Assembly: GCA_964460545.1 (NCBI GenBank)
Contig: CAYWUT010000001.1
Location: forward strand, 21,320 to 85,319
DNA: 64,000 nucleotides
DNA from: an uncultured Spirochaetota bacterium
GTDB lineage: Bacteria; Spirochaetota; B62-G9; DRHN01
Direction: 5' to 3'
Shown here piece after piece: positions 6,570 through 35,055 of the stretch. Every line of letters begins with the position of its first letter. Position 1 is the first letter of the stretch. The translations under genes were made by a program, and so were the position numbers. Under the pieces are notes generated by a model. It ran no database searches. It was not told the DNA's origin and saw nothing but the letters and a program-made list of their open reading frames with translations.

Positions 6570-7196
6570 ATGGACAGGGACATGCTCTTTCAAAAATACG
6601 GACAGGTTGTTGAACCGGGACGGATCATATTCAAGGAAGGTGAGCCGGGAGAAACGATGTGCATCATACAGAAAGGCCGGGTAAAGATAACAAAACGCGT
6701 CGGCCAGATCGAGAAAATCCTCATGATTCTGAATAAGGGCGACTTCTTCGGTGAGATGGCCATCATTACCCAGACGCCGAGAACGGCTACCGCATCCGCG
6801 ATAGACACATGCGAGCTCCTGATGTTCAACCGCCAGGGTTTCACGAGCATGATAAGCAAGAACACGAATATTGCGATGAACATCATCGAAAAGCTCTGTC
6901 TGCGCCTCGAAAAGGCGGACAACCAGATACGCGACCTCGCGAAACGGGACATCAAGTCTCTCGTTATCAGCGCTCTCAATGATTTCAGGAAATCAACAAA
7001 AACCGGAGAAAGGGACACCGTCCTCTACGGTGAGTCCGTCAGGCACATCGCGGAACAGACCTCATCGACCGCGGAGGAGGTCGAAACCCAGTTAAAACGC
7101 CTCATCGAGTCAGGCCTCCTTTCAATGCATGAGAACACGCTTCACATCGTCAAACCGGGTGAACTCGACGTGCTTGCAGGGTACCTGGAGAAGTAG
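6570..7196 (+). CDS. cyclic-nucleotide-binding domain protein (Crp/Fnr-like regulator)
   Basis: cNMP-binding beta-roll motifs (IFKEGEPGETMCIIQKGRVKI ... GDFFGEMAI). Start taken at MDRDMLF (ATG 6570). Confidence 0.55.
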   Translation: MDRDMLFQKYGQVVEPGRIIFKEGEPGETMCIIQKGRVKITKRVGQIEKILMILNKGDFFGEMAIITQTPRTATASAIDTCELLMFNRQGFTSMISKNTNIAMNIIEKLCLRLEKADNQIRDLAKRDIKSLVISALNDFRKSTKTGERDTVLYGESVRHIAEQTSSTAEEVETQLKRLIESGLLSMHENTLHIVKPGELDVLAGYLEK

Positions 7197-7204
7197 GAAA
7201 CCTC

Positions 7205-7708
7205 ATGGACCGCTGCCTCATATGCCGGGAAATGAATGAGAGAGACCTCGATGATGTCATGCGCATCGAGAGGGCGGTTTTCAAGCGCCCCTGGACCGAG
7301 GAGTTCTTCAGGCTGATACTCTCGGATATGAACAATTATATCATTACGCTGAGAGATCGCGATCTCATCGGGTACGGCGGCTATCATCTCCTGAAAAACA
7401 GCTCGAATTTTCTTCATATACAAAAAACCTATCCGAGAATCATCCACCTCATCAGCATCGCCATCAACCCCGGCTTTCAGCACAGGGGTTTCGGCACCAT
7501 GCTCATGAATATGCTCATGAATGATGCGCTGTCGAAGAAAGCCGGATACTGCTACCTCGAAGTTCGTCCCTCGAACATGAGAGCACTCTCCTTCTACCAG
7601 TCCCGGTCCTTTTCCATTATCGGCTTCATAGAGAATTACTACGCGCAGGAGCACGAAAACGCCTATGTCATGGGGAAGGAGATTACTCCCAGGCTGAACC
7701 GGTTATAA
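7205..7708 (+). CDS. GNAT family N-acetyltransferase (RimI-like)
   Basis: GNAT acetyl-CoA motif (IAINPGFQHRGFGTMLM) and a RimI-like length of 167 aa. Confidence 0.6.
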   Translation: MDRCLICREMNERDLDDVMRIERAVFKRPWTEEFFRLILSDMNNYIITLRDRDLIGYGGYHLLKNSSNFLHIQKTYPRIIHLISIAINPGFQHRGFGTMLMNMLMNDALSKKAGYCYLEVRPSNMRALSFYQSRSFSIIGFIENYYAQEHENAYVMGKEITPRLNRL

Positions 7709-8958: not shown

Positions 8959-9051
8959 TTCCTCCTCCTCGGCGAGTATTTTTTTACAATATACTAATAA
9001 TTGTCCTGAAAAACAGAAATTGTTTGTAAAACATCATGTCCGGCCGCTTTT

Positions 9052-10179
9052 TTATCTCCATCTCTTTCGAAGCGGATGAAGTTTCAGCGTTTCCTGTACC
9101 AGATCCGCGATTCCTGCGGCGCCGTTTCTCTCTGCGAGCCGGGAAGCGCTGCACCCCATGGAACGGAGAGTCTTTTCGTCCGAAAGCAGCCGGGTAACGG
9201 CCTCGAAGAGTGATTCTCCGCACAGGTCGTCATCCTGCATGACGACCGCACCGCCGTTTTCCTTAAAAAAGGCGGCGTTGCGCACCTGCTCGCCCCTGCT
9301 CTTGGAACGGGGAAGAGGAACGAGGATTGCAGGTTTTCCCGCACACGCTATTTCAAAGAGAGCACCGGCACCCGCCCTGCTTACGACGATATCGGAAGCA
9401 GCGAGGACATCCCCGATCTCCGCGCCGATAAAGGGAAAACACCGGTACTGCCGCCCGCAAGGCTGCCGCCCGTAAGGCTGTCGCCCGTAAGGCTGCCGCC
9501 CGCCGTCCCCGCACTGATGCACGATGAAGAAGGGAAGATCGCGGCGCGACACCATTTCCCGAACCGCGCTGTTCAGCGATTCGGCGCCGAGACTCCCCCC
9601 GAGTACGGTAACCACCGGCTGACCGGGCTGCACCCCGATAAAACTCCTCCCGCGCAGCGCATCTCCCTCCAGAATGAGCTTGCGCACGGGATTTCCCGTA
9701 TACACGGTTTTTACGTTTCCCAGGCGCTCCGCCGTCTGCGGAAACGAAACACACACCGCTTCCGCAAACCGTGCGATAATGCGGTTTGCAAGTCCGGGAT
9801 CGATATCGCTCTCGTGCGTGATTACCGGTATTCGGAGGAAAGTGGCCGCAAGAACGGGCGGAACGGCGACGAACCCCCCTTTTGAGAAGAGCAGCGAGGG
9901 CCTCTCTCTGCGAAGAATGATGAAGGATTGGACGACCCCGATGATGACGTTGAAGAAATCGGAAAAATTCTTCAGCGAAAAATACCGCCTCAGCTTTCCC
10001 GTTCTGACGGGATGAAAGGGAATGGAGAGCTCCCCGGAGCGTGCTTCCTCAGGTCCGCCTTTCTTCCCGATCCAGAAAAATGCACCGAACCCCCTTCTCC
10101 GCAGCTCGTCCAGGACCGCAATAATCGGATAGATATGCCCCCCGGTTCCTCCGCCCGTTACACCGATCTTGATTTCCAC
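9052..10179 (-). CDS. murG: GT28 UDP-GlcNAc transferase, MurG-like
   Basis: N-terminal G-loop GVTGGGTGGHIYP and overall MurG-like architecture. Carries an internal GRQPY x3 insertion encoded by a 15-bp tandem repeat. The gene stands alone, not in a dcw cluster. Confidence 0.55.
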   Translation of the reverse strand: MEIKIGVTGGGTGGHIYPIIAVLDELRRRGFGAFFWIGKKGGPEEARSGELSIPFHPVRTGKLRRYFSLKNFSDFFNVIIGVVQSFIILRRERPSLLFSKGGFVAVPPVLAATFLRIPVITHESDIDPGLANRIIARFAEAVCVSFPQTAERLGNVKTVYTGNPVRKLILEGDALRGRSFIGVQPGQPVVTVLGGSLGAESLNSAVREMVSRRDLPFFIVHQCGDGGRQPYGRQPYGRQPCGRQYRCFPFIGAEIGDVLAASDIVVSRAGAGALFEIACAGKPAILVPLPRSKSRGEQVRNAAFFKENGGAVVMQDDDLCGESLFEAVTRLLSDEKTLRSMGCSASRLAERNGAAGIADLVQETLKLHPLRKRWR

Positions 10180-10331
10180 GACTCTCCCCCGTGCCGGATT
10201 CTCCTGAGAACGGGCCTGCCGGTCCGCACCGCTTCTCCAAATATATCCCGTACATCCGCTATGTCCATTAAAAGAGATTCATTTTCATTTCCCGGGTTTC
10301 ATGGTACACTGAAAAAAAAGCGGAGTTTGCA

Positions 10332-10814
10332 ATGGAACTGAAATCCGTATCGGTTGAAATTCCGGAGGGTGCGAACGTCATTATCGGACAATCGCATTTC
10401 ATTAAAACCGTGGAGGATATATACGAAGCCGTTATCAATACCGCTCCTTCAATACAATTCGGACTGGCATTCAACGAGGCTTCGGGAGTCTGTCTCGTTC
10501 GAAAAGACGGCAACGATGAGGAGCTCATCCGGCACGCGGTGGACACCGCGCTGAATATCGGCGCGGGCCATATATTCGTTCTTTTCATGAAAGAAGGGTT
10601 CCCCATCCAGGTGCTGCCGGCGGTTCGAAACGTCCGCGAGGTGGTCGGTATATTCTGTGCGACCGCGAATCCCCTCGAGATCATCGTGGCTGAAACCGGG
10701 GGCGGAAGGGGAATCATCGGCGTGGTAGACGGTTCTGCTCCCAGGGGTGTTGAAAAAGAAGACGATAGAAAAGCGAGAATCGATTTATTGAGGAAATTCG
10801 GGTATAAACGCTGA
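10332..10814 (+). CDS. adenosine-specific kinase family (PF04008-like) small protein
   Basis: 160 aa. The N-terminal pattern V.IP.GANVI.GQSHFIKTVED..EA resembles the adenosine-specific kinase family. Assigned from memory of the family only. Confidence 0.35.
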   Translation: MELKSVSVEIPEGANVIIGQSHFIKTVEDIYEAVINTAPSIQFGLAFNEASGVCLVRKDGNDEELIRHAVDTALNIGAGHIFVLFMKEGFPIQVLPAVRNVREVVGIFCATANPLEIIVAETGGGRGIIGVVDGSAPRGVEKEDDRKARIDLLRKFGYKR

Positions 10815-10932
10815 GAGGGAAGCGTCCGTAATCGCATGAATAATTCTGTTTACATGCCCGTCCGGACGCATATAATAAAGGGATATGCGGAAGCCGGGTT
10901 TCGTCCGGAGCCCGGTATGAAAGGAGGGAGCC

Positions 10933-11118
10933 GTGTCTCATCTTCTGGGACAGGTCTTGATGGAATCGGGTATGATAACCATAGATGAGCTGAACGAAGC
11001 GCTGGAGATACAGAAATCCTCCGGACAGAGGCTCGGTGACATTCTCATCAACCTTAATATGATCACGCCTGAAGAGCTGCAAATGGCTCTTGAATTTCAG
11101 GAAGATGCAACTGAGTAG
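10933..11118 (+). CDS. stand-alone MshEN / T2SE_Nter domain protein (61 aa), putative c-di-GMP receptor
   Basis: Strong RBS AAGGAGGGAG 3 bp before the GTG start. Two tandem copies of the 24-residue MshEN motif RLGxxLLxxGLLxxxxLxxxLxxQ (LLGQVLMESGMITIDELNEALEIQ and RLGDILINLNMITPEELQMALEFQ). Confidence 0.6.
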   Translation: MSHLLGQVLMESGMITIDELNEALEIQKSSGQRLGDILINLNMITPEELQMALEFQEDATE

Positions 11119-11143
11119 GTGGTTTGGTGTCCGACCCGGTCCG

Positions 11144-12733
11144 TCAGAGGTAGACCTCTTCACTGCCTATGTTGAGCATCTTGACGATCTTGTTCTTGGC
11201 CTCGAGATAGCTGAGGAAAGCGATGATCTCATCCGGTGTCGTACACTTGAGAAGCCATTCGAAATGCTCCATACGGGCGAATATCTTTGACAGCGAATCG
11301 ACAATTCGATCATAGATCTCACCGAGATACTCGGGCGCGAGAAACGCGAACGCGATGTAAAACCGATCGCTGCCCGGACTCATTTCCACGCCGTCAGGCG
11401 AAAGCCCGATAATGGGCACAATATCATCCACGAAATCCCCGAATGCGTGAAACAGGGCGATGTTCCTTCCGATGGGGGTATGCACGATAATTCCGGTCTG
11501 CATGAGCTCCGCTTCCGCTTTTTCAGGGTTGAGCATCCGTCCCTTCCCCGTCTGTATGATCTCCCTGATGATTTCTTCCCGCTTTACGCCCCTGAGCCTC
11601 GGAATAACGAGATCTTTATGAAACATAAGTGACGCCGTGTAGGGAAGCGGATCGGGCGTGTCTCCTCCCGCATCCGTTTCCGTCTGTTCCAGCATGCGCC
11701 GTTGCGCCCTGTACTCGGGTATCTTGATCATGGGCGGGCGCTCGATACCCCATACTTTCATCTTTTCTATGGAATAGACGTCCCTCACGCCCGTCAAAAC
11801 CTGGAGGGAATCGGTGATGTCCTGAAATATCTCTATCCTCCCCATGTCGTCCGCCCTCTGGAGAAGTATCTTCAGAATCCGGTAGGACATGGACCGGAGT
11901 GATTCGATACTCTGGTTCTTGTGTATGCGAACGTCGAGATCGCACTGGCCCATGATATCGAGACTATAGAGCCGGTTGATATCGATGAGATGGCCCGTTT
12001 CAACTCCGTACCCGGTAAAGAAGGGCAGCTTCTCGAGCAGGTCCCTCCGCCCGGCGTATTCACCGGAGAGCGGCTGGGCGAAACCCGTAAGCTCGGGGAA
12101 GAGAAGATTGAAGAAAGGCCTGACCACCAGTTCCGTAACCCTTCCCCCGCCCGTGTAGTGAATCTCTCCGTGTATCTGAATCGGGCGTTTGTAAAAGGCC
12201 TTTACGTATGAGAGGTGCGGATAGAGAAGAAGCGGTCCGACAAGGCCATAGACGAAACGAGGATGTATATTCGTGATATCCGCGTCAATCCAGCATATAA
12301 TGTCTCCCTTGAGCACATAGAGGCTCTTCCAGAGGTTCTCACCCTTTCCCCTGTACACCCTGTGCTGAGGGAGGATATCCGATGAGTAGTAGAAATCCGC
12401 ACCCGCGCTCCTTGCGACCTCCTCGGTCCTGTCCGTTGATCCCGAATCGATGACCGCTATCTCGTCGAGGAGCGGGTGCTTCTCCGCGAGCTCGCGCCGC
12501 ATGAGCTCGATCTCTTTTCCGACGGTCTTTTCCTCGTTCAGCGTCGGAAAACAGAGGCTTATGCTCAATCCGAGCTCATTCTTTTTTTCAATGAGGCTTT
12601 CGACATCCTTGAACCGCGAGTGATGGAAGGTGTTCCGCTCTATCCATTCCTTTATGTACGAGGGCTTGTCGAGGTCACGGGTAAGGGCCTCCTGTACCTC
12701 GTTCGGACTCTCTTTCTTGTATAATTCCGCCAT
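11144..12733 (-). CDS. gpgS: glucosyl-3-phosphoglycerate synthase (GT81) fused to C-terminal PTS EIIA type-2 (PtsN-like) domain
   Basis: The N-terminal ~330 aa align with mycobacterial GpgS (PTLNEE.TVG ... IAVIDSGSTD.TE ... GKGE.LW.SL...GDI..(W/F)IDADI.N.HP.FV.GLVGPLL). The C-terminal ~150 aa have EIIA-2 hallmarks (PIGRNIALFHA ~ GxAIPH; FYIAFAFLAPE). Confidence 0.7.
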   Translation of the reverse strand: MAELYKKESPNEVQEALTRDLDKPSYIKEWIERNTFHHSRFKDVESLIEKKNELGLSISLCFPTLNEEKTVGKEIELMRRELAEKHPLLDEIAVIDSGSTDRTEEVARSAGADFYYSSDILPQHRVYRGKGENLWKSLYVLKGDIICWIDADITNIHPRFVYGLVGPLLLYPHLSYVKAFYKRPIQIHGEIHYTGGGRVTELVVRPFFNLLFPELTGFAQPLSGEYAGRRDLLEKLPFFTGYGVETGHLIDINRLYSLDIMGQCDLDVRIHKNQSIESLRSMSYRILKILLQRADDMGRIEIFQDITDSLQVLTGVRDVYSIEKMKVWGIERPPMIKIPEYRAQRRMLEQTETDAGGDTPDPLPYTASLMFHKDLVIPRLRGVKREEIIREIIQTGKGRMLNPEKAEAELMQTGIIVHTPIGRNIALFHAFGDFVDDIVPIIGLSPDGVEMSPGSDRFYIAFAFLAPEYLGEIYDRIVDSLSKIFARMEHFEWLLKCTTPDEIIAFLSYLEAKNKIVKMLNIGSEEVYL

Positions 12734-13016
12734 CTTAGCCCCTATCCCGATATTAATTTAATAACATATATTTACACTTTCATCAATAGAAATAGACAGA
12801 CGCGTATACACGCCGGGAACGGTTATGTACGGAATAAAGGTCACTTTCAGCCCCGTTTCTTCATTAATAATTGAAAAATCGGACCGCTTTTTACCTTATA
12901 TACAGTATAATGAGGCGAATGGGGCGATCGAGTTTCAAGAAATAGGTAAAAGAGGGAGATTACACAAAAAATCCCTCAATTCACCCTTTTTTAAGGGTGC
13001 CGGGAAGGAAGGTGAA

Positions 13017-14714
13017 ATGTCAAGTACCGATTATGACCGTATGAAAGAACGGCTCAATAAACTGTACGGCGGGCGGAAGGGCAAAACAACGTATGAAAAA
13101 CTTATACGGATAATCGAACGATACGAGCCGGAGCTCACGCAGCAAACCGGGAGGCTCTCGGAAAAGGACGTCGTGATCATCACCTACGGGGACGCGTTCC
13201 GGAAAGAGGGCACGGCACATCTCCGGACACTTCACGGATTCCTCAAGGACCATCTGCACGACATGGTGAGCATCGTTCATATTCTGCCCTTCTTTCCCTA
13301 CTCCTCGGACGACGGATTCTCGGTAATAGACTATAAGAAGGTCGACCCGAAGCTCGGCTCATGGGACGACATCGGGTTCCTGGAAAAGGACTTCAAGCTC
13401 ATGTTCGACGCCGTCATCAACCATATATCCGTCAAGAGCGAACCGTTTATGGGGTTCCTCGCCGGGGATCCCAGGTACCAAGGCTTCTTCATAGAGCCCG
13501 GTCCCGAATACGATATCTCATCGGTATTCAGGCCCAGGGCCCTTCCCCTTATTACCCGCTATAATACCGACGAGGGAGAGGTCGGCCTGTGGACCACCTT
13601 CAGCGTTGACCAGGCGGACCTGAACTACGAGAATCCCGAGGTCCTCCTCTACATCATCGACGTCCTCCTCTTCTACGCTTCAAAGGGCGCATCTATCATA
13701 CGTCTCGATGCCATCGCGTTTCTCTGGAAGACGAGCGGTACCTCGTGCCTCCACCTTCCACGGACCCATGAGGTCATCAAGCTCTTCAGGAACGTCATGA
13801 ATGCGGCCGCACCGCAACTCAAGATCATTACGGAGACGAACGTACCGCACAGGGACAACGTCGCATACTTCGGATCCGGCAGGGACGAGGCGCATATGGT
13901 CTACAATTTCGCTCTGCCGCCGCTCGCGGCGCACGCGCTCATAACCGGAAACGGCTCCTACCTGACGTCATGGGCCGCGAAGCTCGAAACCCCGGGGGGA
14001 AACACGGCCTTTTATAATTTTACCGCTTCCCATGACGGCGTCGGGCTCATGCCCGTAAAGAACATCCTCCCACCCGAGGAGATTTCGGTCCTCGAGAACG
14101 CCGCTGTCCGTCACGGGGGGCTGACGGGCCTGAAAAACAATCCCGACGGCACGAAGAGCGTTTACGAGCTGAATATATCCTACTTCGACCTGCTCTCCGA
14201 TCCCGCTGGACAAGAGGACACCCGCCAGCAGGCATCCCGTTTCATCGCTTCACAGGGTATCGCACTGACGCTCCGGGGAGTACCGGCCCTCTATTACCAC
14301 TCCTTCATCGGTTCGAGAAACGACCTTGACGGGGTGGAAAGAACCGGAACAAATAGGTCGATCAACAGGGAGAAGCTCGATGTCCAGGAGGTCGAAGAAG
14401 GCTTGCGGGACCCCGGCTCTCTCCGTTCACTCGTTTATGACGGTTTGAAAAAGCTCACCCGGGCGAGGAGCAGCCGCGACGCGTTCAGTCCGTATGGAGG
14501 CCAGGAGGTACTGAACATATCAAATGAGATCTTCGCGGTTCTGCGGACCTCACCCGACGGCCTGAATAAAATTCTATCGTACATCAATGTCTCGAACAGT
14601 GAGGTTTTCGTCAAGCCGCCCGCAGCCGGGATGCGCGATATCATAACCGGCAGGCGTTTCGGTGAGGAGATCGGGGTGAAGCCGTACGAGGTGCTCTGGC
14701 TCGAGGAAAAATGA
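13017..14714 (+). CDS. GH13_18 sucrose-phosphorylase-family enzyme (likely glucosylglycerate phosphorylase)
   Basis: Sucrose-phosphorylase-like motifs (ITYGDAF, ILPFFPYSSDDGFSVIDY, DAVINH, IIRLDAIAFLWK). Start taken at MSSTDYD with an upstream GGAAGGAAGG RBS; the ORF track begins earlier at 12825. Product inferred from context: divergent from gpgS. Confidence 0.65.
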   Translation: MSSTDYDRMKERLNKLYGGRKGKTTYEKLIRIIERYEPELTQQTGRLSEKDVVIITYGDAFRKEGTAHLRTLHGFLKDHLHDMVSIVHILPFFPYSSDDGFSVIDYKKVDPKLGSWDDIGFLEKDFKLMFDAVINHISVKSEPFMGFLAGDPRYQGFFIEPGPEYDISSVFRPRALPLITRYNTDEGEVGLWTTFSVDQADLNYENPEVLLYIIDVLLFYASKGASIIRLDAIAFLWKTSGTSCLHLPRTHEVIKLFRNVMNAAAPQLKIITETNVPHRDNVAYFGSGRDEAHMVYNFALPPLAAHALITGNGSYLTSWAAKLETPGGNTAFYNFTASHDGVGLMPVKNILPPEEISVLENAAVRHGGLTGLKNNPDGTKSVYELNISYFDLLSDPAGQEDTRQQASRFIASQGIALTLRGVPALYYHSFIGSRNDLDGVERTGTNRSINREKLDVQEVEEGLRDPGSLRSLVYDGLKKLTRARSSRDAFSPYGGQEVLNISNEIFAVLRTSPDGLNKILSYINVSNSEVFVKPPAAGMRDIITGRRFGEEIGVKPYEVLWLEEK

Positions 14715-14724
14715 CCGCCTGAGG

Positions 14725-16053
14725 CTATTCGCTCCTGGGATCCATGGATTCGACGATTCCCTCGAAATTGATAAGGAGGCTCTTGAGCTTTCTCTTGAGT
14801 ACTTCGTAGGAAAAATACTTTGCCGCGAGCCTGTAGTTCTTCTCCGCCCGTTCCCTGTGCGAATTCCCGTCCCGGAGCACCGCTTTAATTTTACTTATCA
14901 CCTCGTCCGTTACATAGCCCTCCATCTCGATGACCTCGAAACCGAGGGGCTTTATGTCCGTGAGGTATGCCGAGTACCGGTTTACCAGTATGGCCTTCTT
15001 GAAGTAGATGGCCTCTATGAAGGCATTCCCGAATCCTTCGTAGGTGGAGGGATAGGTGATGAGGTCGGCGTGCGGATAAATGTCCCAGAGAGTGTACACC
15101 TTTTCTCCCCGCTCGTTTCTCCCACGCCGGTCGCCGATGATTTCGGGTTTTAATATGATGGAAACCCCGAGGTGCTCCGCATAACTCAGGATACGCTTCT
15201 CATAGGCATCACCCTCGTCTCCCACGGAATGGGTAATGACGAGCTTCGCCCTCGGATCACCTATCCTGGATACGGCCTCTATGGTGTGCTCGATCCCCTT
15301 CCTGGCCACGACCCGGGTGGGCTGCAGTATAAAGTAATCGTCCTTTCCTATACCGAACGCCTTCCGTACATCCGCATTGTAGTGGTTGATTCCCGGAGGC
15401 TCCTTACTGAAATCGAGTACATTCGGGATAACCACGGGCGAAAGCCCCGTTCTGTAGCTCAGCTGGCGGTCGGCTTCGGACTGGATCACCACGTGCTGTA
15501 TGGAATGAAGAGAGGGCGGAAAGGCCGTGCTCAGTATGTCCGCCACGGCGTTGACGTAGAAACGGGGCCGCTCCCAGTAGAAATCGTGATGATGCGCTAT
15601 CGTCGGAATCCCGGTCTCCGCTATGAGCTCGGTCAGCGCGAGCCCGAGCGGAATGTTCATCGGTATGGCGAGGCAATTTTCCGCTATGATGAGATGTATC
15701 TCGAACTTATCGAGAAACCGGTAGAGGGCGTCCTTCAGCATCCGCCTGAGCCGGTGTATTTTACCGGTGAGCTCCGAAGTCCTCCTGTACACCTTGAAGC
15801 ACTGGTCATTGATCTGCAGTATGCTCTTGTGGCCGAAGAAAGCCTCGGGTACGATCATGGTCTTTGCCGGGTCCCGGTCGCTGACCCCGGCAAAATAGAA
15901 CTTCCTGTACCCCATTCCCCTGAGCACGGCGGCCCACTTTTCCGTTTCGAGCGAAACACCGTCCGTCCCCGCGAAGCGCGTTGAAACGAATCCGATATTC
16001 TTGATTTGCCTGTAACCGTTGTACCTGCCCTTTTTCTGGTTAGCCGCTGCCAT
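14725..16053 (-). CDS. GT4-family (GT-B) glycosyltransferase
   Basis: GT4-like C-terminal nucleotide-sugar binding region (YPSTYEGFGNAFIEAIYFKKAILV). Sits inside the compatible-solute locus; may catalyse a second glycosyl transfer. Confidence 0.5.
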   Translation of the reverse strand: MAAANQKKGRYNGYRQIKNIGFVSTRFAGTDGVSLETEKWAAVLRGMGYRKFYFAGVSDRDPAKTMIVPEAFFGHKSILQINDQCFKVYRRTSELTGKIHRLRRMLKDALYRFLDKFEIHLIIAENCLAIPMNIPLGLALTELIAETGIPTIAHHHDFYWERPRFYVNAVADILSTAFPPSLHSIQHVVIQSEADRQLSYRTGLSPVVIPNVLDFSKEPPGINHYNADVRKAFGIGKDDYFILQPTRVVARKGIEHTIEAVSRIGDPRAKLVITHSVGDEGDAYEKRILSYAEHLGVSIILKPEIIGDRRGRNERGEKVYTLWDIYPHADLITYPSTYEGFGNAFIEAIYFKKAILVNRYSAYLTDIKPLGFEVIEMEGYVTDEVISKIKAVLRDGNSHRERAEKNYRLAAKYFSYEVLKRKLKSLLINFEGIVESMDPRSE

Positions 16054-16271
16054 AACCCCCCCGTATTCGCTCGCGGACGATAATCGGTTTCACCTCATCC
16101 CCTTAAGTCCCGTCACCCTGTACTTTTTGGCATTATCTATTAAAATCCGGTATATTTTATCAGAATTCACGAAAGAAGATAATTATTTTTTTATACGGCC
16201 TTTTAAGCGTTGATGCTTTACGGAAAGAACCGTATGGTACGTCTTGATTTCGAAATTTTACGCGCTTCATT

Positions 16272-17108
16272 TTATTTTACGCTATTAATATGTTCGGTTA
16301 TTTCCGGAAGCTTTAAAACCGTAATATCGGGCCGCACCCCCCCGCACCGTTCGTCTTCCTTCCTGAGGCGCAGCGACCGTGCGTCGCCCGCAAACAGGGC
16401 GGTTTGAAAACCGGCCGCTGCAGCCGGCGCGATATCATTCAGCATGTCGTTTCCCACGTAGAGCACGTTGCCGGCGTCTATCCCCCTCACCGCACAGGCC
16501 CTTCGGGCCCTTTCAAAGAACAGGGAGGACGGCTTCGCACGGGCCTGCTCGAAGGAGTAGAACGAAAGGTCCCGGCATATCCCGATATCCCCGGGTTTCC
16601 CGAGGAAATAGTAAAAGAGCAGGGGTGTGTAGAACTGGGCGTTCGATATAACACCCAGAGGCAGGTCTCCCGCCGCGAGGTCCGTGAAGAGACCGCGGAG
16701 TCCGGGCATGGGCCAAGCCGGGTTTACCGTCCACTCGTACTCGAGTGCAAACCGTTTCACGCGGCCCGGGCCGAGATCCAGCACCCGCATCCACACCTCG
16801 TCAATGTTCACCTCGGGGAAATCGATGCCTTTCAGGCGGTCGACTTCATGCATCTCCTCTATGACGCTGAAATAGGACGAGAGAACACTCCCGGGATCGC
16901 GGCGGATTCCGTACGCGGAGAGCAGGGGGGCGAGCGCGGCCGCTCCGTAATCCCGGCGTGCCGTAGAGATATCACCGGAGCCGCTGATGAAGAGCGTGCC
17001 GTAAATATCGAAAAACACCGCGCGTACCGTGCGGCCGAGCGAACCGCTGCTCCGCAGTTCCGTGGCGAGGGGCTGCATGGGAGTCGCGTATTTTTCGATT
17101 ATGGACAT
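16272..17108 (-). CDS. HAD-superfamily hydrolase (candidate sugar-phosphoglycerate phosphatase)
   Basis: HAD motif I FFDIYGTLF and motif IV YVGNDMLNDI. Start taken at MSIIEKY; the track ORF begins 30 nt earlier. Confidence 0.5.
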   Translation of the reverse strand: MSIIEKYATPMQPLATELRSSGSLGRTVRAVFFDIYGTLFISGSGDISTARRDYGAAALAPLLSAYGIRRDPGSVLSSYFSVIEEMHEVDRLKGIDFPEVNIDEVWMRVLDLGPGRVKRFALEYEWTVNPAWPMPGLRGLFTDLAAGDLPLGVISNAQFYTPLLFYYFLGKPGDIGICRDLSFYSFEQARAKPSSLFFERARRACAVRGIDAGNVLYVGNDMLNDIAPAAAAGFQTALFAGDARSLRLRKEDERCGGVRPDITVLKLPEITEHINSVK

Positions 17109-17118
17109 AAATTTATTC

Positions 17119-18534
17119 TTATGCATAGGATTTTTCACAGAGAAGCAGCTGGTTATGCTCGGGCTTGTTGAACGCCCTCAGTAGTACGGATTTATCGATC
17201 CGGTGTACGGGCGACCCTTCAAGCACTTTTCCGTATATTCCCATCATCCGGGCCCCGTTTTTCTCCAGCGAATACGCGTCTTCTATTATTGTACTGTTCC
17301 GCTCGATCCGTTCCTCATCGATCATCGTATCTCCGGAAACCGGGAGAAAGGGATTGTATTCCTCAAGACGCTTCCGCGCGGACGGCTCCTTAAGACACCG
17401 GACGATCACCCCGCTCTGCAGGTCCTCGCTCAGCGCACCGAAATCGACCCAGCCGCGCGTTCTTATGGAGTCCAGGTAGCCGTCCTCCTCTTCCCGGCGG
17501 ACCTCCAGGCCGTACCGTTCCGCTTTAAGCCGATGGCACGCGCGCCACTTCATCTCGAAGAGGCTGTAATCGACCATATCGAGGGGAATACGGAGCGCGG
17601 TGTAGAGTTGATCGAAGACGATTCCACGGTCGGTAAAATCCCCGCATACATCCGGAAGCAGCCGCCCGAAGAGCTGTCTTTTCCCTGTCCACGGCTCCAA
17701 AAAGGTGAGGCCGAAACCCTCCTTGATACTCGTGGTGATCACGAAGCGGGACCTGCCGAGTATGACGGACAAGTCCGTATCCGTGCCGAGCCCGAAGAGC
17801 ACCGGAAGGCCGTACCGTGAAACGAAACTCCGCCACTCCTCGTAGCTCTGTACATCGAGCATACCCGTCGGCTCAAGGGTCAGGCCGACCGCATCGCCCT
17901 TTTGTATGAAGAGCGAGAGAAGCACCGCCTCTCCCACGTTCTTTCTCCGTATCGCCCTTACCGGGTAAAGCACGATATCCCTGTTTCCATTCCGGGCCCG
18001 AAGAGGCCTGACCGCGTTCGGAAGGAGATGAAGCCCCTCATCCTTTAAACCCGCTTCCCTCAGTATTTTATAATCACGTGAATTGATAACCGCGTAGTGG
18101 CAATCGGAGGGGTACTCTTCGGCCGTATAGTTGTCGGGCCTGCCGTCTTCCGCGAAATCATGAATCTGGAGCAGGACCCGCTCACCGCGGGAGCGTAAAA
18201 TCCGGACCATACGCACGAACTCTTTATTCTTGCCCAGCGTCGGATTGTGTATGTGCAGTATGTCCGCTCCCTCTTTCCACACCGAGCCGATCGAACGCTG
18301 AACATCATCGGCCATCCGTTCCGGGTCGCATCCTTCCCTCCTGTCACGGTCATACCTGAGAGAGGAAACGACCCTGAAGGGCAAGCGAAGATCCTCGTCG
18401 GACGGAGGAGGGGATTCCCCGGTCAGGATGAGCGGCCTGAATCCGGCAAGGCCGGCGGCGGATGCGATCTGGTCCTCAATTACGCGGGTAACGCCTCCCC
18501 GCCGCATATGGTGATGGATAAACGCTACTTTCAT
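17119..18534 (-). CDS. GT-B glycosyltransferase (GT4-like), second copy in locus
   Basis: 471-aa ORF with a GT-B C-terminal motif (SIKEGFGLTFLEPW). Confidence 0.45.
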   Translation of the reverse strand: MKVAFIHHHMRRGGVTRVIEDQIASAAGLAGFRPLILTGESPPPSDEDLRLPFRVVSSLRYDRDRREGCDPERMADDVQRSIGSVWKEGADILHIHNPTLGKNKEFVRMVRILRSRGERVLLQIHDFAEDGRPDNYTAEEYPSDCHYAVINSRDYKILREAGLKDEGLHLLPNAVRPLRARNGNRDIVLYPVRAIRRKNVGEAVLLSLFIQKGDAVGLTLEPTGMLDVQSYEEWRSFVSRYGLPVLFGLGTDTDLSVILGRSRFVITTSIKEGFGLTFLEPWTGKRQLFGRLLPDVCGDFTDRGIVFDQLYTALRIPLDMVDYSLFEMKWRACHRLKAERYGLEVRREEEDGYLDSIRTRGWVDFGALSEDLQSGVIVRCLKEPSARKRLEEYNPFLPVSGDTMIDEERIERNSTIIEDAYSLEKNGARMMGIYGKVLEGSPVHRIDKSVLLRAFNKPEHNQLLLCEKSYA

Positions 18535-18551
18535 GCTCGGGACGTCCGGTT

Positions 18552-19658
18552 TCAGAGCTCCGTAAAGGGAATGTCGATCCGCTTTCCGCCCGCCATCGCC
18601 GATTCATGGGCTGCTATTCCGGCCATGGTCCAGTTGGCCGCCGTATCCGCATCGATCGCGGATTTTCGCCCTTCCCTGATGGCGCTCAGGAATTCATGAA
18701 CGAGATGGGGATGGGACCCCCCGTGTCCGGACCCCTGTATGAACGAGGTGGATTCCTCGTCGACCACCTCCCCCATGGTAAAGGGGGCTATTTCCTTGGG
18801 AAGTATACCGGCAAAATCAGGTACATCCACCCGCTCCGCATCCTCAAATCCTGAAAAACGTACCATGCCCTCGCCCGCCACCTGCTCCCACTCGTAGGAC
18901 AGCTTTGTCCCGTAAACGTCGAAACTCTCCCTGTACTGTCTGATCGTATCGAAGAGCGACCTCGTTACCTCTATTGTCAGGTTGCTCTCCCTGAGCTTCA
19001 TGGTGGCCGTTTCAACGGCAAAGGGAGAGTTGTACCGGGCGCGGTACTCCTCCCGTATCCTGCCTGAGCCGTGACACACCACATATTCAGCCGCGCCGCC
19101 TGAAAGTTTCAAAAGGGGACTCACCGCATGGGTGGCGTACAGCATGGGCGGATATCCGTACCAGTACTCGGGCCATCCGGGAAGGCTCATGTTCTGCTGA
19201 TGCGAACCGCGCATGAACTGTATCGCGCCGATATTTCCAGAATTATACTGCTCCTGGACGTAGAGAAACTCCCGTGTGTACACGGCTGTTTCCATCATCA
19301 TATACACCCGGCCGGACGCCTTCCGCGCCTCCGCGATACCCATGCACTCATCAGCGGTGAATCCCATGGGTACGGTGCACGCCGTGTGCTTACCCGCTTT
19401 GAGTGAAGCGATTGACATGGGGGCATGGTCGGCAATACCCGTTACGATGTGAATTGCGTCGATTTCCTCCACCTCGAGGAGATCCTCGAAACGGGTGAAC
19501 CGCCGTTCCACGCCCAGCTGGTCGCCTATCTCGTCGAGATGCTTCCTGTTGCGCCGGCATATGGCATAGCATTCGGAATACGGATGCTTCTGGTAAATAG
19601 GTACGAACTCGGCTCCGAATCCGAGACCGACCACCCCGACCCTTATTTTATCCGCCAT
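18552..19658 (-). CDS. Gfo/Idh/MocA family NAD(P)-dependent oxidoreductase
   Basis: N-terminal Rossmann fold IRVGVVGLGFGAEFVP and the typical family length of 368 aa. Confidence 0.6.
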   Translation of the reverse strand: MADKIRVGVVGLGFGAEFVPIYQKHPYSECYAICRRNRKHLDEIGDQLGVERRFTRFEDLLEVEEIDAIHIVTGIADHAPMSIASLKAGKHTACTVPMGFTADECMGIAEARKASGRVYMMMETAVYTREFLYVQEQYNSGNIGAIQFMRGSHQQNMSLPGWPEYWYGYPPMLYATHAVSPLLKLSGGAAEYVVCHGSGRIREEYRARYNSPFAVETATMKLRESNLTIEVTRSLFDTIRQYRESFDVYGTKLSYEWEQVAGEGMVRFSGFEDAERVDVPDFAGILPKEIAPFTMGEVVDEESTSFIQGSGHGGSHPHLVHEFLSAIREGRKSAIDADTAANWTMAGIAAHESAMAGGKRIDIPFTEL

Positions 19659-19834
19659 GGTTCCTCCTCCTCTTTACCTTTCTCACGGGGTACAAACTCC
19701 CCCTGGAAAGGAACGTCATCCGTATTACAATACTACCACGACACTGTTTATTACACCACCACTCAAATACCGGAAGGGTAAATCGTCCGAAGCCGTTTAA
19801 AAAGAATGGAACCGGTGGAATCCAGGGGTGGAAA

Positions 19835-20638
19835 TCAGGCTACGCCGTTTTCTTCGGGATCTTCCAGCACCTTCTTGAGGTCCTGAAGAAACCGCGCGCC
19901 CGTTGCGCCGTCCACCGCCTTGTGGTCGCATGAGACCGTCATTTTCATGCGATAACCCGCCTGGATGGAGCCGTCCTTCACGACCGGGACTTCCTTGATC
20001 GCACCCACGGCGAGTATGAGGGCCTGCGGGGGATTCACAATCGCGGCAAAGTGCTCTATTCCGAACATGCCGAGGTTTGAAACGGTAAAGGTCCCGCCCA
20101 TCCCCTCTCGCGGCCTGAGCTTCATGTTTCGAGCCTTCTCGATGAGAATGAGCGATTCCTCCTGCAGCTGCTCGAGGTTCTTCGACTCGCAGTTCCTCAC
20201 CGTGGGAACGAGCAGGCCGCCTTCGACCGCCACGGCAATACCTATATTAATCTCTTCAAAATAGAGCATTTTTCCATCGTCATACGATGCGTTGCACTCC
20301 GGATGGTTCTGCAGTGTAACGGCGCATGCCTTGACAATGATGTCGTTGAAGCTGAACGTGCGCTCACGCCCCTCATTCAGCTTCTTCCTGTACTGCATGG
20401 CCCGCTCCATCTCGACTTCAATGGTCATATAGATATGGGGGTTCTCGAGCTTGCTCTGCACCATTCTCTTTGCAATGACCTTCCTCAGCGACGAAGCCGC
20501 TTCTTCCCTGTACTGTACGTCACTCATACTCACTGTCCTCCGAGTATCCATGGCATTTCGGAAATAATACCCCGCGGGCTCTTTAAAAGTAAAGAACCTT
20601 TTGCTCCGCCGGGAACGCCGAACCGCCGTGATAGACAT
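19835..20638 (-). CDS. 2-oxoacid dehydrogenase acyltransferase (E2) catalytic-domain protein, no lipoyl domain
   Basis: Catalytic motif SCDHKAVDGATGARFL (DHRxxDG). No lipoyl or E1/E3-binding domains. The true start may be the internal MSDVQY (~20530). Confidence 0.55.
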   Translation of the reverse strand: MSITAVRRSRRSKRFFTFKEPAGYYFRNAMDTRRTVSMSDVQYREEAASSLRKVIAKRMVQSKLENPHIYMTIEVEMERAMQYRKKLNEGRERTFSFNDIIVKACAVTLQNHPECNASYDDGKMLYFEEINIGIAVAVEGGLLVPTVRNCESKNLEQLQEESLILIEKARNMKLRPREGMGGTFTVSNLGMFGIEHFAAIVNPPQALILAVGAIKEVPVVKDGSIQAGYRMKMTVSCDHKAVDGATGARFLQDLKKVLEDPEENGVA

Positions 20639-20913
20639 AGAAAACTATTGCAAAATCCCAACGGCCGTGACACTATACGGGTTGTAAGGCCCCGTGCATG
20701 GGGCCGCACCGCGGGAGAACCGTGTGGTATAGAACTTTGAATTTAAGGGTATTCATGGTATATTTAATGTACATAGAATCGGTGTGATCACGGAAACTCC
20801 CGAAGGGACGAAGGGACGAAGGGAGACCGGAACACAGTGATTATCAAAAATATGCGTGTCATAATTATAAATCGACATCGGTATAAGCGGCATGTTTACA
20901 GGTCAAGTAACGG

Positions 20914-21705
20914 ATGACGAAAAGCGAGTTTCAGAAAAAGGTCATAGAGCTCCTCAAGAAATATCGTATCAACAGGAGGATGAAGGAGAGTATTTTCCCC
21001 CTCTTCTCACTGGCCGATAATCTATCTCAGGAGGAGATGGTCAACGTCTACAACCTCCTCAAAGAGGCGATTGTAGCCCAGAAGGAGGCGGAAAAACTCT
21101 CCACGAGGCTGAATGCGCTTTTCCTTGATTTCAACACCACGATCAAGGACGTTTCGGACGACCTGAGTGATATCAGGAAGAAGCTTAATGATCTGCGCGA
21201 ATCGGAAGCTCAGACGGGGGCCAGACCGGCGGGGAGAGAAATACGGATTAAACACGGAAATACGATGAAATTCAACAAACAGTCGTTTCCAGGAGAGAAA
21301 CCGAATTTCGGTCTCAAGCTGAACAAGCTTTTCGCCGCCTTTATAACCGAATACGGCCCGGACCATATAACGCTCGTAGTCAGCGACTCGATTCTCTATA
21401 CCAACAATCTCATCCTGAGGATCTCACTCCGGACAAAAGAGGTACTCATCGGTTCCAGCAAATCCATGAAGCTCTACGAATCCTCGAACGGAGAAAGCTT
21501 CCTCGTCACCGACAAGCCCGAGGTCATTCCCCGGGGAAGCAGAAAGGGATTTTACTTCAAGAACATCACCTACGAGGATATCCTGAATCTTACCAACGGG
21601 GATTTCTTCAAGGTATTCGACGAGAACATACTCAAGACGTACCGTGAGTATGAAACCGACCTTCCGAGCGAGCTGGAACAGGTGGGCTACTTCGAATTCG
21701 AGTAA
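20914..21705 (+). CDS. hypothetical protein (lower-GC region)
   Basis: 263-aa ORF lying in an AT-richer stretch with no antisense competitor. No recognisable motif. Confidence 0.4.
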   Translation: MTKSEFQKKVIELLKKYRINRRMKESIFPLFSLADNLSQEEMVNVYNLLKEAIVAQKEAEKLSTRLNALFLDFNTTIKDVSDDLSDIRKKLNDLRESEAQTGARPAGREIRIKHGNTMKFNKQSFPGEKPNFGLKLNKLFAAFITEYGPDHITLVVSDSILYTNNLILRISLRTKEVLIGSSKSMKLYESSNGESFLVTDKPEVIPRGSRKGFYFKNITYEDILNLTNGDFFKVFDENILKTYREYETDLPSELEQVGYFEFE

Positions 21706-33387: not shown

Positions 33388-35055
33388 ATGCTGAGAGGAT
33401 TGAACATGAGAAAAGCTGTGATCGGATTTTTTATACTGGCGCTCCTGACAGGGGCGTATCCGCTCCTCGGCCAGAAAGTCTCCCTGAATTTCGACGAGGT
33501 CGACATCGCCGTCTTTCTTCAAACGATGAGCGAGATTACGGGTAAAAGCTTCGTTGTAAGCGACAAGGTAAAGGGCAAGATTAGTTTCGTCTCGTCGGAG
33601 GATGTTCCCGCATCAAAAGTCTATCCCATCGTTCTCTCCATACTGGAAGCGCGGGGATTCCAGGCCGTGCCCGGCAAGGGCGACATCATACACATCTACC
33701 CGGCGCAGGAAGCGCTGAAGATGAGCGGGCGCATACACTACGGCACCCAGCCCCATCCCCCCGGGGACGAGGGCATCATCACCCACATCATTCCTCTCGA
33801 TTACGCGGATGTCAACAGCGTGATCAACGCAATACGTCCCGCTTTCGGCAATGACATCATTCTCACTCCCTACACGCGGATTAACTCCATTATAACGAGC
33901 GGCAATCCGGAAACCGTCAACCTGATCCTCGATATGGTGGGGTACATGGACACCTCGGTCCCGACCGAAAAGTCGGATATACACATATACAACCTCGAGA
34001 ACTCAGACGCCGTAACCATGGCCAAGACCCTGTCGACCCTGGCGAGCAGCATACAGTCGCGGCAGAGCCAGAAGAAACAGAAGACGCCGGAACAAGAGGA
34101 GGATTTCCTCAGCGACCGCTTCAACGTGGTGGCCAACGAGGAGACCAACTCCGTTATCATAATCAGCGCTCCGGATGACTGGGAAAAGATCGAGAATATA
34201 ATCGTTGAGCTCGACATCAAACGCGACCAGGTGCTCGTCGAGGCGCTCATCCTGGAGATAACGCTGAACGACGACCAGATACTGGGATTCGACTGGAACG
34301 TGCTGGTCGATACGGGTGTCGGGGCGGACGTGGTGGCGGGCTCGAATACCGGCCTCATGGCCGAGGGCCTGCAGACGGGCGGGCTTGCCGGGCTGACGGT
34401 CGGGCTTCTCAGTGGAGACCTGCCCAACGTGTACGCGATTCTCAATGCGAACAAGGAGAAGACGAACCTGAAGATCCTCTCCACTCCTGAAATCGTGACC
34501 GTGGACAATCACGAGGCAACGATCGAGATCGGCGAACAGATTCCGTTTCTCACGAGCTCCCGCGTCGATGAAAACAACAACGTGGTTCAGACCTACGATT
34601 ACAAAAACATCGGGATCACCCTCAAGCTCACGCCCCACATAAACAAGAACGGCTACATAACGATGAACATAAACCAGCAGATAAAGAAGATCGTCGAGGG
34701 CACGAGGGCCCTGGAAAACCCGTCGGTCTTCAACCGCGAGGTGACCTCGAAGGTCACGGTCAGGAACGAACGCACCATCGTCATCGGAGGGCTCATCAGG
34801 GACGATATTACGACGAGCGAGCAGAAGGTCCCGATACTGGGGGACATACCGATTCTCGGCCTTCTTTTCAGGAAAGAGGTGGAACAGCGGACGAGAACGA
34901 ACCTCCTCATATTCATCACTCCGCACCTTATAACGGACGATACGCAGATCAGCGAGATCACGGAGCAGAAGAGGCGGCAACAGGAAGATTTCGAGGCGAC
35001 GCAGCAGAAGAAAAAGCTACTCAGGCGGAAGGAAGATGAAAAAGACGGAGACTGA
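33388..35055 (+). CDS. gspD: type II secretion system secretin GspD (PilQ/GspD family)
   Basis: Signal peptide, then N0 domain LNFDEVDIAVFLQTMSEITGKSFVV. C-terminal secretin domain (LSTPEIVTVDNHEATIEIGEQIPF...VIGGLIRD...VPILGDIPILGLLFR). Confidence 0.85.
   Translation: MLRGLNMRKAVIGFFILALLTGAYPLLGQKVSLNFDEVDIAVFLQTMSEITGKSFVVSDKVKGKISFVSSEDVPASKVYPIVLSILEARGFQAVPGKGDIIHIYPAQEALKMSGRIHYGTQPHPPGDEGIITHIIPLDYADVNSVINAIRPAFGNDIILTPYTRINSIITSGNPETVNLILDMVGYMDTSVPTEKSDIHIYNLENSDAVTMAKTLSTLASSIQSRQSQKKQKTPEQEEDFLSDRFNVVANEETNSVIIISAPDDWEKIENIIVELDIKRDQVLVEALILEITLNDDQILGFDWNVLVDTGVGADVVAGSNTGLMAEGLQTGGLAGLTVGLLSGDLPNVYAILNANKEKTNLKILSTPEIVTVDNHEATIEIGEQIPFLTSSRVDENNNVVQTYDYKNIGITLKLTPHINKNGYITMNINQQIKKIVEGTRALENPSVFNREVTSKVTVRNERTIVIGGLIRDDITTSEQKVPILGDIPILGLLFRKEVEQRTRTNLLIFITPHLITDDTQISEITEQKRRQQEDFEATQQKKKLLRRKEDEKDGD

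Follow-up and report, generated by a model that had tools for sequence, protein, structure and literature searches.

A glucosyl-3-phosphoglycerate synthase fused to a divergent, putatively regulatory EIIA-fold domain in an uncultured Spirochaetota bacterium

The 64,000-nucleotide stretch of contig CAYWUT010000001.1 analyzed here (the window), from an uncultured Spirochaetota bacterium, carries on its minus strand a gene, gpgS-EIIA (11144..12733), whose predicted product joins GpgS, a glucosyl-3-phosphoglycerate synthase of glycosyltransferase (GT) family GT81, to a C-terminal domain with the type-2 EIIA fold of the phosphotransferase system (PTS). The reading that we favor, at a probability of roughly 0.55, is that an active GpgS is coupled in cis to an EIIA-fold domain acting as a phosphorylation-independent allosteric module that binds a partner or a ligand. 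From the sequence we infer both parts of this proposal, a likely regulatory role for the EIIA-like domain and a probable lack of phosphorylation. GpgS would catalyze the first committed step of glucosylglycerate and mannosylglucosylglycerate synthesis, where the C-terminal module would gate it, and the fusion marks this enzyme as a regulated node.

An earlier reading of this DNA, made from its letters alone (the sequence-only reading), had proposed the fusion and knew of no described example. A literature search for GpgS combined with EIIA, PtsN, PTS or USP likewise found no paper, and the architecture, although visible in databases, is as far as the literature shows apparently undescribed. 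Database entries mostly carry the plain name 'glucosyl-3-phosphoglycerate synthase', an annotation from which the regulatory domain cannot be guessed; JGI entries at times read 'IIA component (Ntr-type)/glycosyltransferase'.

Architecture of the fusion gene and its GT81 domain

The gene is an uninterrupted open reading frame (ORF) of 529 amino acids plus a stop codon, as listed and as re-read codon by codon, and it contains every motif on which the sequence-only reading had relied (NEEKTVG, IDSGSTD, GKGENLW, GDIICWIDADITNIHP, VGPLL, PIGRNIALFHA and FYIAFAFLAPE). With both domain profiles scoring above their cut-offs, the proposal of a GpgS-EIIA fusion within one ORF holds. The parts of the gene, apart from the C-terminal domain, are as follows.

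11144..12733, minus strand: gpgS-EIIA, whole gene (ORF list; 100%-identical protein P0001; more than 100 full-length homologue clusters with PF00535 and PF00359)
11708..12655, minus strand: GT81 glucosyl-3-phosphoglycerate synthase catalytic domain, residues 27-342 (NF010496, PDB matches, Foldseek, motifs)
12278..12286, minus strand: D150-A-D152, the DXD metal/nucleotide-sugar motif of the GT-A fold (direct translation; D150 and D152 invariant in both alignments)
11711..11743, minus strand: E331-RPPMIKIPE-Y341, fusion junction, formed by the C-terminal tail that is conserved in the GpgS clade (R332, P334 and Y341 invariant in the alignments)
11648..11707, minus strand: acidic, variable inter-domain linker, residues 343-362 (pLDDT <50 at 349-366; 0 conserved columns)

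An AlphaFold model of the whole protein, built with 96 homologues, shows two folded domains separated by the disordered segment 349-366 (pLDDT 83.9, pTM 0.72). Among the best 80 of at least 595 related loci in species-representative genomes, 9 encode the fusion and 71 a stand-alone GpgS of ~325 amino acids. Stand-alone relatives such as P0114, P0118 and P0120 end a few residues beyond an ERPPMIT-x-x-Y tail, and in the fusions the linker and the EIIA domain begin exactly after that tail. That two separate genes were joined artificially, by misassembly or by the frameshift that the sequence-only reading had flagged as fatal to its proposal, can practically be dismissed, because over 100 independent clusters at 90% identity, drawn from NCBI, JGI, ENA and Logan assemblies, show the PF00535 and PF00359 architecture over their full length. 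Identical or nearly identical full-length proteins occur in independent assemblies from these sources, the clusters share the junction as well as the architecture, and the reading frame is continuous.

The N-terminal part was correctly assigned to GT81 GpgS by the sequence-only reading. The NCBIfam equivalog NF010496 scores 367.7 bits over residues 27-339, its cut-off being 262 (E 4.1e-110; positions 5-306 of the 307-position profile), and the modeled domain superimposes on the GT81 crystal structures 7pho, 4dec and 3f1y of GpgS and mannosyl-3-phosphoglycerate synthase (MpgS) with target TM-scores of 0.87-0.93 in Foldseek. Across 96 sequences the blocks GKGENLWKS, GGGRVTE, QPLSGEY and R-x-H-x-NQ are invariant or nearly so, with GKG-x-N, GGRVT and R-x-H-x-NQ strictly invariant and the NEE residues ~90% conserved. 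In alignment with mycobacterial GpgS, the GKGE, GGRVTE and RxHxNQ motifs and the DXD region are identical, as is NEE (the comparison for NEE and its companions being with M. hassiacum GpgS); we take NEE, GKGE, GGRVTE and RxHxNQ to be the substrate-binding motifs of the Mycobacterium tuberculosis GpgS structures. Characterized GT81 enzymes, namely the GpgS of M. tuberculosis, M. hassiacum and Petrotoga mobilis and the MpgS of Rubrobacter xylanophilus, share with the window protein the GT-A fold, 35-41% identity, the DXD motif and the GKGE, GGRVTE and RxHxNQ blocks; they differ in being single-domain proteins of ~300-390 amino acids, to which gpgS-EIIA adds a 20-residue linker and a 167-residue C-terminal EIIA-fold domain.

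The catalytic motifs are intact, and the genetic context, a neighboring candidate phosphorylase in a locus of the mannosylglucosylglycerate type, supports a putative glucosyl-3-phosphoglycerate synthase that would use NDP-glucose as donor. Sequence searches of the PDB returned 3f1y, 7p5l and 4y6n (E 1e-56 to 1e-65), and the top match, by sequence and by fold, is the R. xylanophilus MpgS 3f1y (E 1.5e-65), which scores 225 bits against ~200 for the mycobacterial GpgS proteins (E ~1e-57 to 1e-59). These matches would suit a catalytic domain that is instead a mannosyl-3-phosphoglycerate synthase, or that uses some other donor or acceptor, in which case the pathway under control would be a different one. 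We consider this very unlikely: the curated GpgS equivalog cut-off is passed, the neighboring gene encodes a candidate glucosylglycerate phosphorylase with the TETN signature, and the remaining genes of the locus fit the scheme of Cunha 2013, in which glucosyl-3-phosphoglycerate (GPG) is converted to mannosylglucosyl-3-phosphoglycerate (MGPG) and then to mannosylglucosylglycerate (MGG).

The EIIA-fold domain and its active site

The sequence-only reading had also assigned the C-terminal part to the type-2 EIIA fold, and this is borne out by profile and by structure. Pfam PTS_EIIA_2 (PF00359) scores 36.3 bits over residues 370-508, where 27 is the gathering score (E 6.6e-9; positions 2-142 of the 144-position profile), a modest margin, and a profile of the domain and its close relatives reaches EIIA sequences in the PDB at E 0.14 and 1.8 only. 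Since sequence alone matched solved EIIA structures so weakly, the EIIA-2 identity was settled by fold search. The model of residues 363-529 (pLDDT 84.4) retrieves 1a6j, 2a0j, 1xiz, 3oxp, 1a3a, 3urr and 4gqx with probability 1.00 and TM-scores of 0.6-0.76, the first five of them at E 1e-5 to 6e-4; for the IIA-Ntr proteins of E. coli (1a6j) and N. meningitidis (2a0j) and for IIA-Mtl (1a3a) the TM-score is 0.65-0.76.

GpgS-EIIA fusions fall into two groups, which we call subfamilies a and b. Subfamily a, which includes the window protein, has members of ~528-540 amino acids that are 68-75% identical to it, and all of its organism-labeled members (few are labeled) come from metagenome-assembled genomes (MAGs) of Spirochaetes/Spirochaetota. 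Members of subfamily b have ~502-514 amino acids, are 40-46% identical overall and occur in Spirochaetota, including the cultured Salinispira pacifica (WP_455381906.1), in Calditrichota and in Ca. Eisenbacteria (UCF79554.1). Both subfamilies share the two-domain architecture and the junction after ERPPMIT-x-x-Y, and their GT domains are ~55% identical; subfamily b differs in a conserved RGI-x-EDD linker element, in the absence of the flanking glucosylglycerate gene set described below, and in a C-terminal domain that is only 22% identical to that of subfamily a.

The active site was surveyed by aligning 118 C-terminal regions (54 of subfamily a, including the window protein, and 64 of subfamily b) with E. 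coli PtsN, for which the reference sequence was identical to PDB 1a6j at 163/163 residues. The relevant features in the window and the residues found at the PtsN positions are listed below.

11147..11647, minus strand: residues 363-529, a divergent EIIA type-2 fold domain of the subfamily a kind (PF00359, model, Foldseek)
11447..11449, minus strand: codon of His429, which aligns with the phospho-acceptors His73 of E. coli IIA-Ntr and His65 of IIA-Mtl (alignment census, translation)
11495..11497, minus strand: Thr413 codon, at the position of the active-site Arg, R57 in E. coli and R51 in N. meningitidis (alignment census)
PtsN Arg57: subfamily b, Arg 62/64; subfamily a, Ser 37, Thr 8, Asn 4, Arg 0/54
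PtsN Glu58: subfamily b, Glu 63/64; subfamily a, Gly 45/54
PtsN Gly68: subfamily b, Gly 63/64; subfamily a, Asn 50/54
PtsN Pro72: subfamily b, Pro 64/64; subfamily a, Phe 49, Tyr 4, Leu 1
PtsN His73: subfamily b, His 63/64; subfamily a, His 50, Ser 2 (P0013, P0026), Asn 2 (P0028, P0032)

The site of subfamily b is canonical (L-x-R-E...S-T-G-I-G-x-G-I-A-I-P-H). The window protein does have the histidine whose context the sequence-only reading described as phosphorylatable, at His429, but the GIAIPH signature around it is replaced by N-I-A-L-F-H, and neither the Arg nor the Pro expected of a type-2 EIIA is present. The active-site Arg counts as universally conserved, and its importance has been stated (PMC1201152). 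The four subfamily-a proteins that lack the histidine are of full length and otherwise intact, and the one whose surroundings were inspected, P0013 (Ser), lies in a fully syntenic locus, so the histidine appears not to be essential to the function of subfamily a. Because the fold and profile identify an EIIA-2 domain while the Arg and the GIAIPH Pro are missing, the C-terminal domain should be called EIIA-fold, or EIIA-like, rather than a functional PTS EIIA.

Loss of phosphotransfer residues has not been accompanied by decay of the domain as a whole. Two C-terminal domains of subfamily a share 65% identity, where the figure is 22% for a comparison with subfamily b and 15% for one with E. coli PtsN, a sign of strong purifying selection on a diverged sequence. 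The subfamily-a alignment has 40 invariant columns, the histidine not being among them, and they are concentrated in LPYTASLMFH, the loop FGDFVDD just after the histidine, LAPEYLG and the C-terminal helices EHFEWLL-C-TP--IIAF-SYLE-KNKI. In subfamily a, constraint has shifted from the phosphotransfer site to other surfaces.

Several observations weigh against a domain freed from phosphorylation. His429 is kept in 93% of subfamily a (50/54), Thr419 and Gly422 are retained as well, and 51/54 members have Lys or Arg at position 423, two residues past the conserved Ile-Gly. Such a basic residue could conceivably substitute for the lost Arg, and a non-canonical phosphotransfer in subfamily a is imaginable on these grounds.

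Phosphorylation, regulation and the origin of the fusion

The sequence-only reading went further and proposed that GpgS is under direct control of PTS(Ntr) phosphorylation. In such a model His429 would be phosphorylated by NPr or HPr according to nitrogen, carbon and K+ status and would switch the synthase in cis. Several points speak for it: fold and Pfam score both identify an EIIA-2 domain, the histidine that corresponds to His73 of IIA-Ntr is there in the window protein (His429) as in 50/54 of the subfamily, the fully canonical site of subfamily b implies that the common ancestor was probably phosphorylatable, and glucosylglycerate is linked to nitrogen limitation. Precedent exists too, in that PtsN binds and regulates enzymes and transporters directly, PtsN~P inhibiting GlmS in Salmonella, although the 2026 review of PTS(Ntr) that documents such control does not mention fusions (PMC13104625).

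For the window protein, direct PTS(Ntr) phosphorylation is nevertheless unlikely. The universally conserved Arg and the GIAIPH Pro are each absent from 54/54 members of subfamily a, and the histidine has given way to Ser or Asn in 4/54, intact proteins of which the one inspected is in a syntenic locus. Used as a phmmer query, PtsN picks up subfamily b (E 1e-9 to 4e-15) and misses subfamily a, although a profile of the subfamily-a C-terminal domain does reach stand-alone EIIA proteins in a set of 5.8 billion proteins at E 1e-7 to 5e-4. Nor was a PTS phosphocarrier gene found nearby. Members of the HPr, NPr, EI and HprK families were not found in any fused locus that was read, nor in the 64-kb window by Pfam scans of most larger ORFs and phmmer searches of all ORFs; HPr, NPr and EI were not found in the ~20-kb flanks of 18 other fused loci; and the Pfam tables of nine fused loci list no PTS family. 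The phmmer queries (E. coli HPr, NPr, EI and PtsN and B. subtilis HPr, of which the PtsN sequence was verified) were run against the window ORFs and 80 loci, and matched only a stand-alone PtsN, a PPDK-like sequence and the EIIA domains fused to GpgS in subfamily b. The stand-alone PtsN is canonical (PF00359, 106 bits) and is encoded at 6914-7417 on the plus strand of a Spirochaetes MAG locus (L041). Two unannotatable genes separate it from an unfused gpgS, relative to which it lies ~2.5 kb upstream; as a single case, this proximity is too weak for a gene-neighborhood link.

Phosphorylation through PTS(Ntr) is a plausible model for the sister subfamily b, and it is a better hypothesis there than for the window protein. 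We hypothesize that the fusion probably began with a stand-alone GpgS, behind whose ERPPMIT-x-x-Y tail an IIA-Ntr-like domain was appended. Subfamily b, the less derived of the two, keeps the complete phosphotransfer site, its histidine probably being phosphorylated by HPr or NPr. Along the branch to subfamily a the site has decayed, with the Arg lost, Pro replaced by Phe, Gly by Asn and the histidine becoming dispensable in some members, as other surfaces were fixed. Because the site decayed while those other surfaces are strongly fixed, the subfamily-a domain would no longer serve as a PTS phospho-acceptor, though it would descend from one still kept in subfamily b. When 111 GT-domain sequences were placed in a neighbor-joining tree with 200 bootstraps, subfamily a was monophyletic in 200/200 replicates; in the same tree neither subfamily b nor a and b together form a clade. 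Given the shared junction and the higher identity of the subfamily-a C-terminal domain to that of subfamily b than to PtsN, we tentatively favor one fusion origin followed by losses.

An alternative account of the divergence is that the C-terminal domain is a decayed remnant with a purely structural role in solubility, dimerization or tethering, conveying no signal. It would explain why the phosphotransfer residues are lost and why most close GpgS relatives manage without an EIIA domain (71 of the best 80 genome loci). Drift would be expected of a remnant, yet the 65% identity and the 40 invariant columns on specific surfaces indicate otherwise, the domain is confidently predicted to fold, and sister GpgS enzymes acquired USP and SLOG sensor domains in parallel. 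On balance we regard a mere remnant as quite unlikely, and return to the EIIA-fold domain as a regulatory module in cis.

The reading of the domain as regulatory draws on those sister enzymes, because GpgS relatives repeatedly carry sensor or partner domains. When 1.84 billion representatives at 50% identity were searched exhaustively with HMMER, 575 GpgS relatives reached E <= 1e-30, and the best 150 of these include only three EIIA fusions (P0042, P0119 and P0276). Many relatives are proteins of ~600-650 amino acids with the GpgS domain at the C-terminal end, and 36 of the 51 N-terminally extended proteins examined carry USP at the N-terminal end; USP-GpgS (representatives P0266-P0404) is far commoner than GpgS-EIIA. 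The two kinds of fusion belong to a common GpgS clade, with 50-54% identity between GT domains, and in both a sensor or partner domain has been appended; the sensor domain (a tandem USP, N-terminal) and its position differ from those of gpgS-EIIA. Further fusions (P0275, P0282, P0405, P0265 and P0295) involve cpYpsA/SLOG (one case), HAD, His_Phos_1, MGS_GT and, in a protein of 1383 amino acids that unites the three main genes of the gpgS-EIIA locus, a GT4-GpgS-GH13 arrangement. GpgS-HAD and GpgS-His_Phos_1 would be bifunctional synthase/phosphatase proteins. The literature search turned up no account of these various GpgS fusions. Three C-terminally extended GpgS proteins considered as hidden EIIA fusions were ruled out, P0319 and P0339 for their hydrophobic, membrane-like tails and P0356 for a low-complexity tail. 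The first enzyme of the pathway thus repeatedly gains sensor or pathway-partner domains, which makes a regulatory module likelier than an accidental appendage. As sister enzymes carry USP or SLOG in place of EIIA, GpgS may be a point at which several stress signals meet in different lineages.

The cytoplasmic domain of SLC4/band 3 is an EIIA fold that serves as a regulatory, protein-docking domain without phosphotransfer. Its structures 1hyn and 5jho are among the fold matches of the C-terminal domain, and it offers a parallel for an EIIA type-2 fold that lies in cis to a functional module and has lost phosphotransfer; it differs in being eukaryotic and attached to a membrane transporter, and no sequence relation is detectable beyond the fold. 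A cross-match of the Band_3_cyto profile was also seen on a PtsN. A further comparison is with PtsN of E. coli and Neisseria (1a6j, 2a0j) and with IIA-Mtl (1a3a), which share the fold and whose phospho-acceptor is aligned with a histidine of the window protein. Against PtsN, the gpgS-EIIA domain is ~15% identical, has a histidine that is dispensable in some members, and is covalently fused in cis to its presumed target where PtsN is free-standing. If our reading is right, gpgS-EIIA is a bacterial case of an EIIA fold leaving phosphotransfer while remaining under selection.

Glucosylglycerate and mannosylglucosylglycerate accumulate under salt stress and nitrogen scarcity, and to our knowledge no protein-level switch for their synthesis has been described. 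Regulation of GpgS by the EIIA-like domain could plausibly couple synthesis to a stress signal, and a likely purpose would be to avoid a futile cycle between synthesis by GpgS and the activity of the divergently encoded glucosylglycerate phosphorylase. More tentatively, the two subfamilies may have taken different roles, subfamily b as a true His-phosphorylated switch that relays the nitrogen, carbon and K+ state of the PTS to glucosylglycerate, and subfamily a as a repurposed, phosphorylation-independent sensor acting through the FGDFVDD loop and the C-terminal helices. The subfamily-a sensor might then dock a 61-residue MshEN protein encoded beside the gene, or read an ion or metabolite, so as to gate synthesis against the phosphorylase. 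If true, this would be the first PTS EIIA(Ntr)-type domain found in cis to a biosynthetic enzyme for a compatible solute, glucosylglycerate being an anionic one. With its intact site, subfamily b forms with the decayed subfamily a a natural pair in which to test direct PTS(Ntr)-type control of an osmolyte pathway.

The glucosylglycerate locus and other window features

Four genes beside gpgS-EIIA complete the putative pathway locus.

12825..14714, plus strand: GH13_18 glucosylglycerate phosphorylase (GGaP) candidate, divergent from gpgS-EIIA (alpha-amylase domain, TETN signature, synteny in all subfamily-a loci examined)
14725..16053, minus strand: GT4 glycosyltransferase, MggS-like (mannosylglucosylglycerate synthase-related; NF041101 227 bits against a cut-off of 640, hence related and not equivalog; syntenic)
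16272..17138, minus strand: HAD-superfamily phosphatase, candidate MGPG/GPG phosphatase, MggB-like (PF00702, PF13242; syntenic, also beside unfused gpgS)
17119..18534, minus strand: 471-residue divergent GT4-like glycosyltransferase, candidate MGPG synthase, MggA-like (homologues; without a Pfam or NCBIfam match)

The GGaP candidate fails the TIGR03852 sucrose phosphorylase model (208 bits, cut-off 334) and carries the TETN motif (ITETNVPH), which is the signature of glucosylglycerate phosphorylases according to Franceus and Desmet (PMC7178133). Because its homologues have 563-569 amino acids, its true start is probably Met65 at ~13017, 64 codons inside the mechanical ORF (12825); this start leaves ~280 bp of AT-rich divergent promoter region common to GGaP and gpgS-EIIA. 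The 471-residue GT4-like protein has 2237 homologues, some named as GT family 4 or 1 and others 'hypothetical' in public records. Its gene neighbors gpgS at 3 loci with the fusion and at 20 without it, the homologues almost always lie beside a HAD phosphatase and a gpgS gene, and one homologue, P0254 (798 amino acids), is itself fused to a HAD domain. The GT4-like and HAD pair is therefore likely to be an MGPG synthase and phosphatase of the MggA/MggB type.

The whole set (GGaP, GT4, HAD and GT4-like) is syntenic in all subfamily-a loci examined, and gpgS genes without the fusion have it as company too, in Verrucomicrobiota, Balneolaceae and Desulfobacteraceae. Cunha et al. described a route from GpgS through MggA to MggB and noted it in Spirochaetaceae (PMC3736172), and the gene content of the window locus appears to fit this route with a phosphorylase added. 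Genes of subfamily b stand in unrelated, variable contexts. One of them, in Ca. Eisenbacteria (L081, CP070702.1), is followed by a gene (11598-12857) for a 419-residue GT with a weak match to the mannosylglycerate-synthase GT domain, and the same pairing of gpgS with a mannosylglycerate-synthase-type GT occurs as a fused pair in P0265. The L081 pairing suggests a second pathway step different from that of the window locus. A search of 9000-21000 for riboswitches and other RNA elements gave no Rfam match at E <= 1.

On the other side of gpgS-EIIA lies the small gene mentioned above.

10933..11118, plus strand: 61-residue protein consisting only of tandem MshEN c-di-GMP-binding motifs (NF053729 70 bits, cut-off 38)

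It has a promoter-like site of its own at 10849-10876. In 5/8 subfamily-a loci a homologue follows gpgS-EIIA immediately on the 3' side, the two genes converging in the window, L001 and L083 and running in the same direction in L003 and L089; L004, L087 and L088 lack it. By position, this protein may be a partner or accessory of the EIIA-like domain. Elsewhere in the window, at 33388-36760 (plus strand) and 49952-50689 (minus strand), genes of a type IV pilus or type II secretion system encode a secretin, a T2SSE/PilB-type ATPase with an MshEN domain and a prepilin peptidase; the ATPase thus carries the same type of c-di-GMP-binding domain as the 61-residue protein.

Two further genes upstream of it in window coordinates deserve mention. 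The gene at 10332-10814 (plus strand) belongs to PF04008, 'adenosine-specific kinase' (238.8 bits), and is conserved near gpgS-EIIA in subfamily-a loci; members also occur near the subfamily-b locus L011 and the unfused loci L052 and L066. The murG gene (9052-10179, minus strand) contains at 9448-9503 an in-frame 15-nt tandem repeat (3.7 copies, 90% match) that adds GRQPY-GRQPY-GRQPC between the two Pfam domains of the MurG glycosyltransferase.

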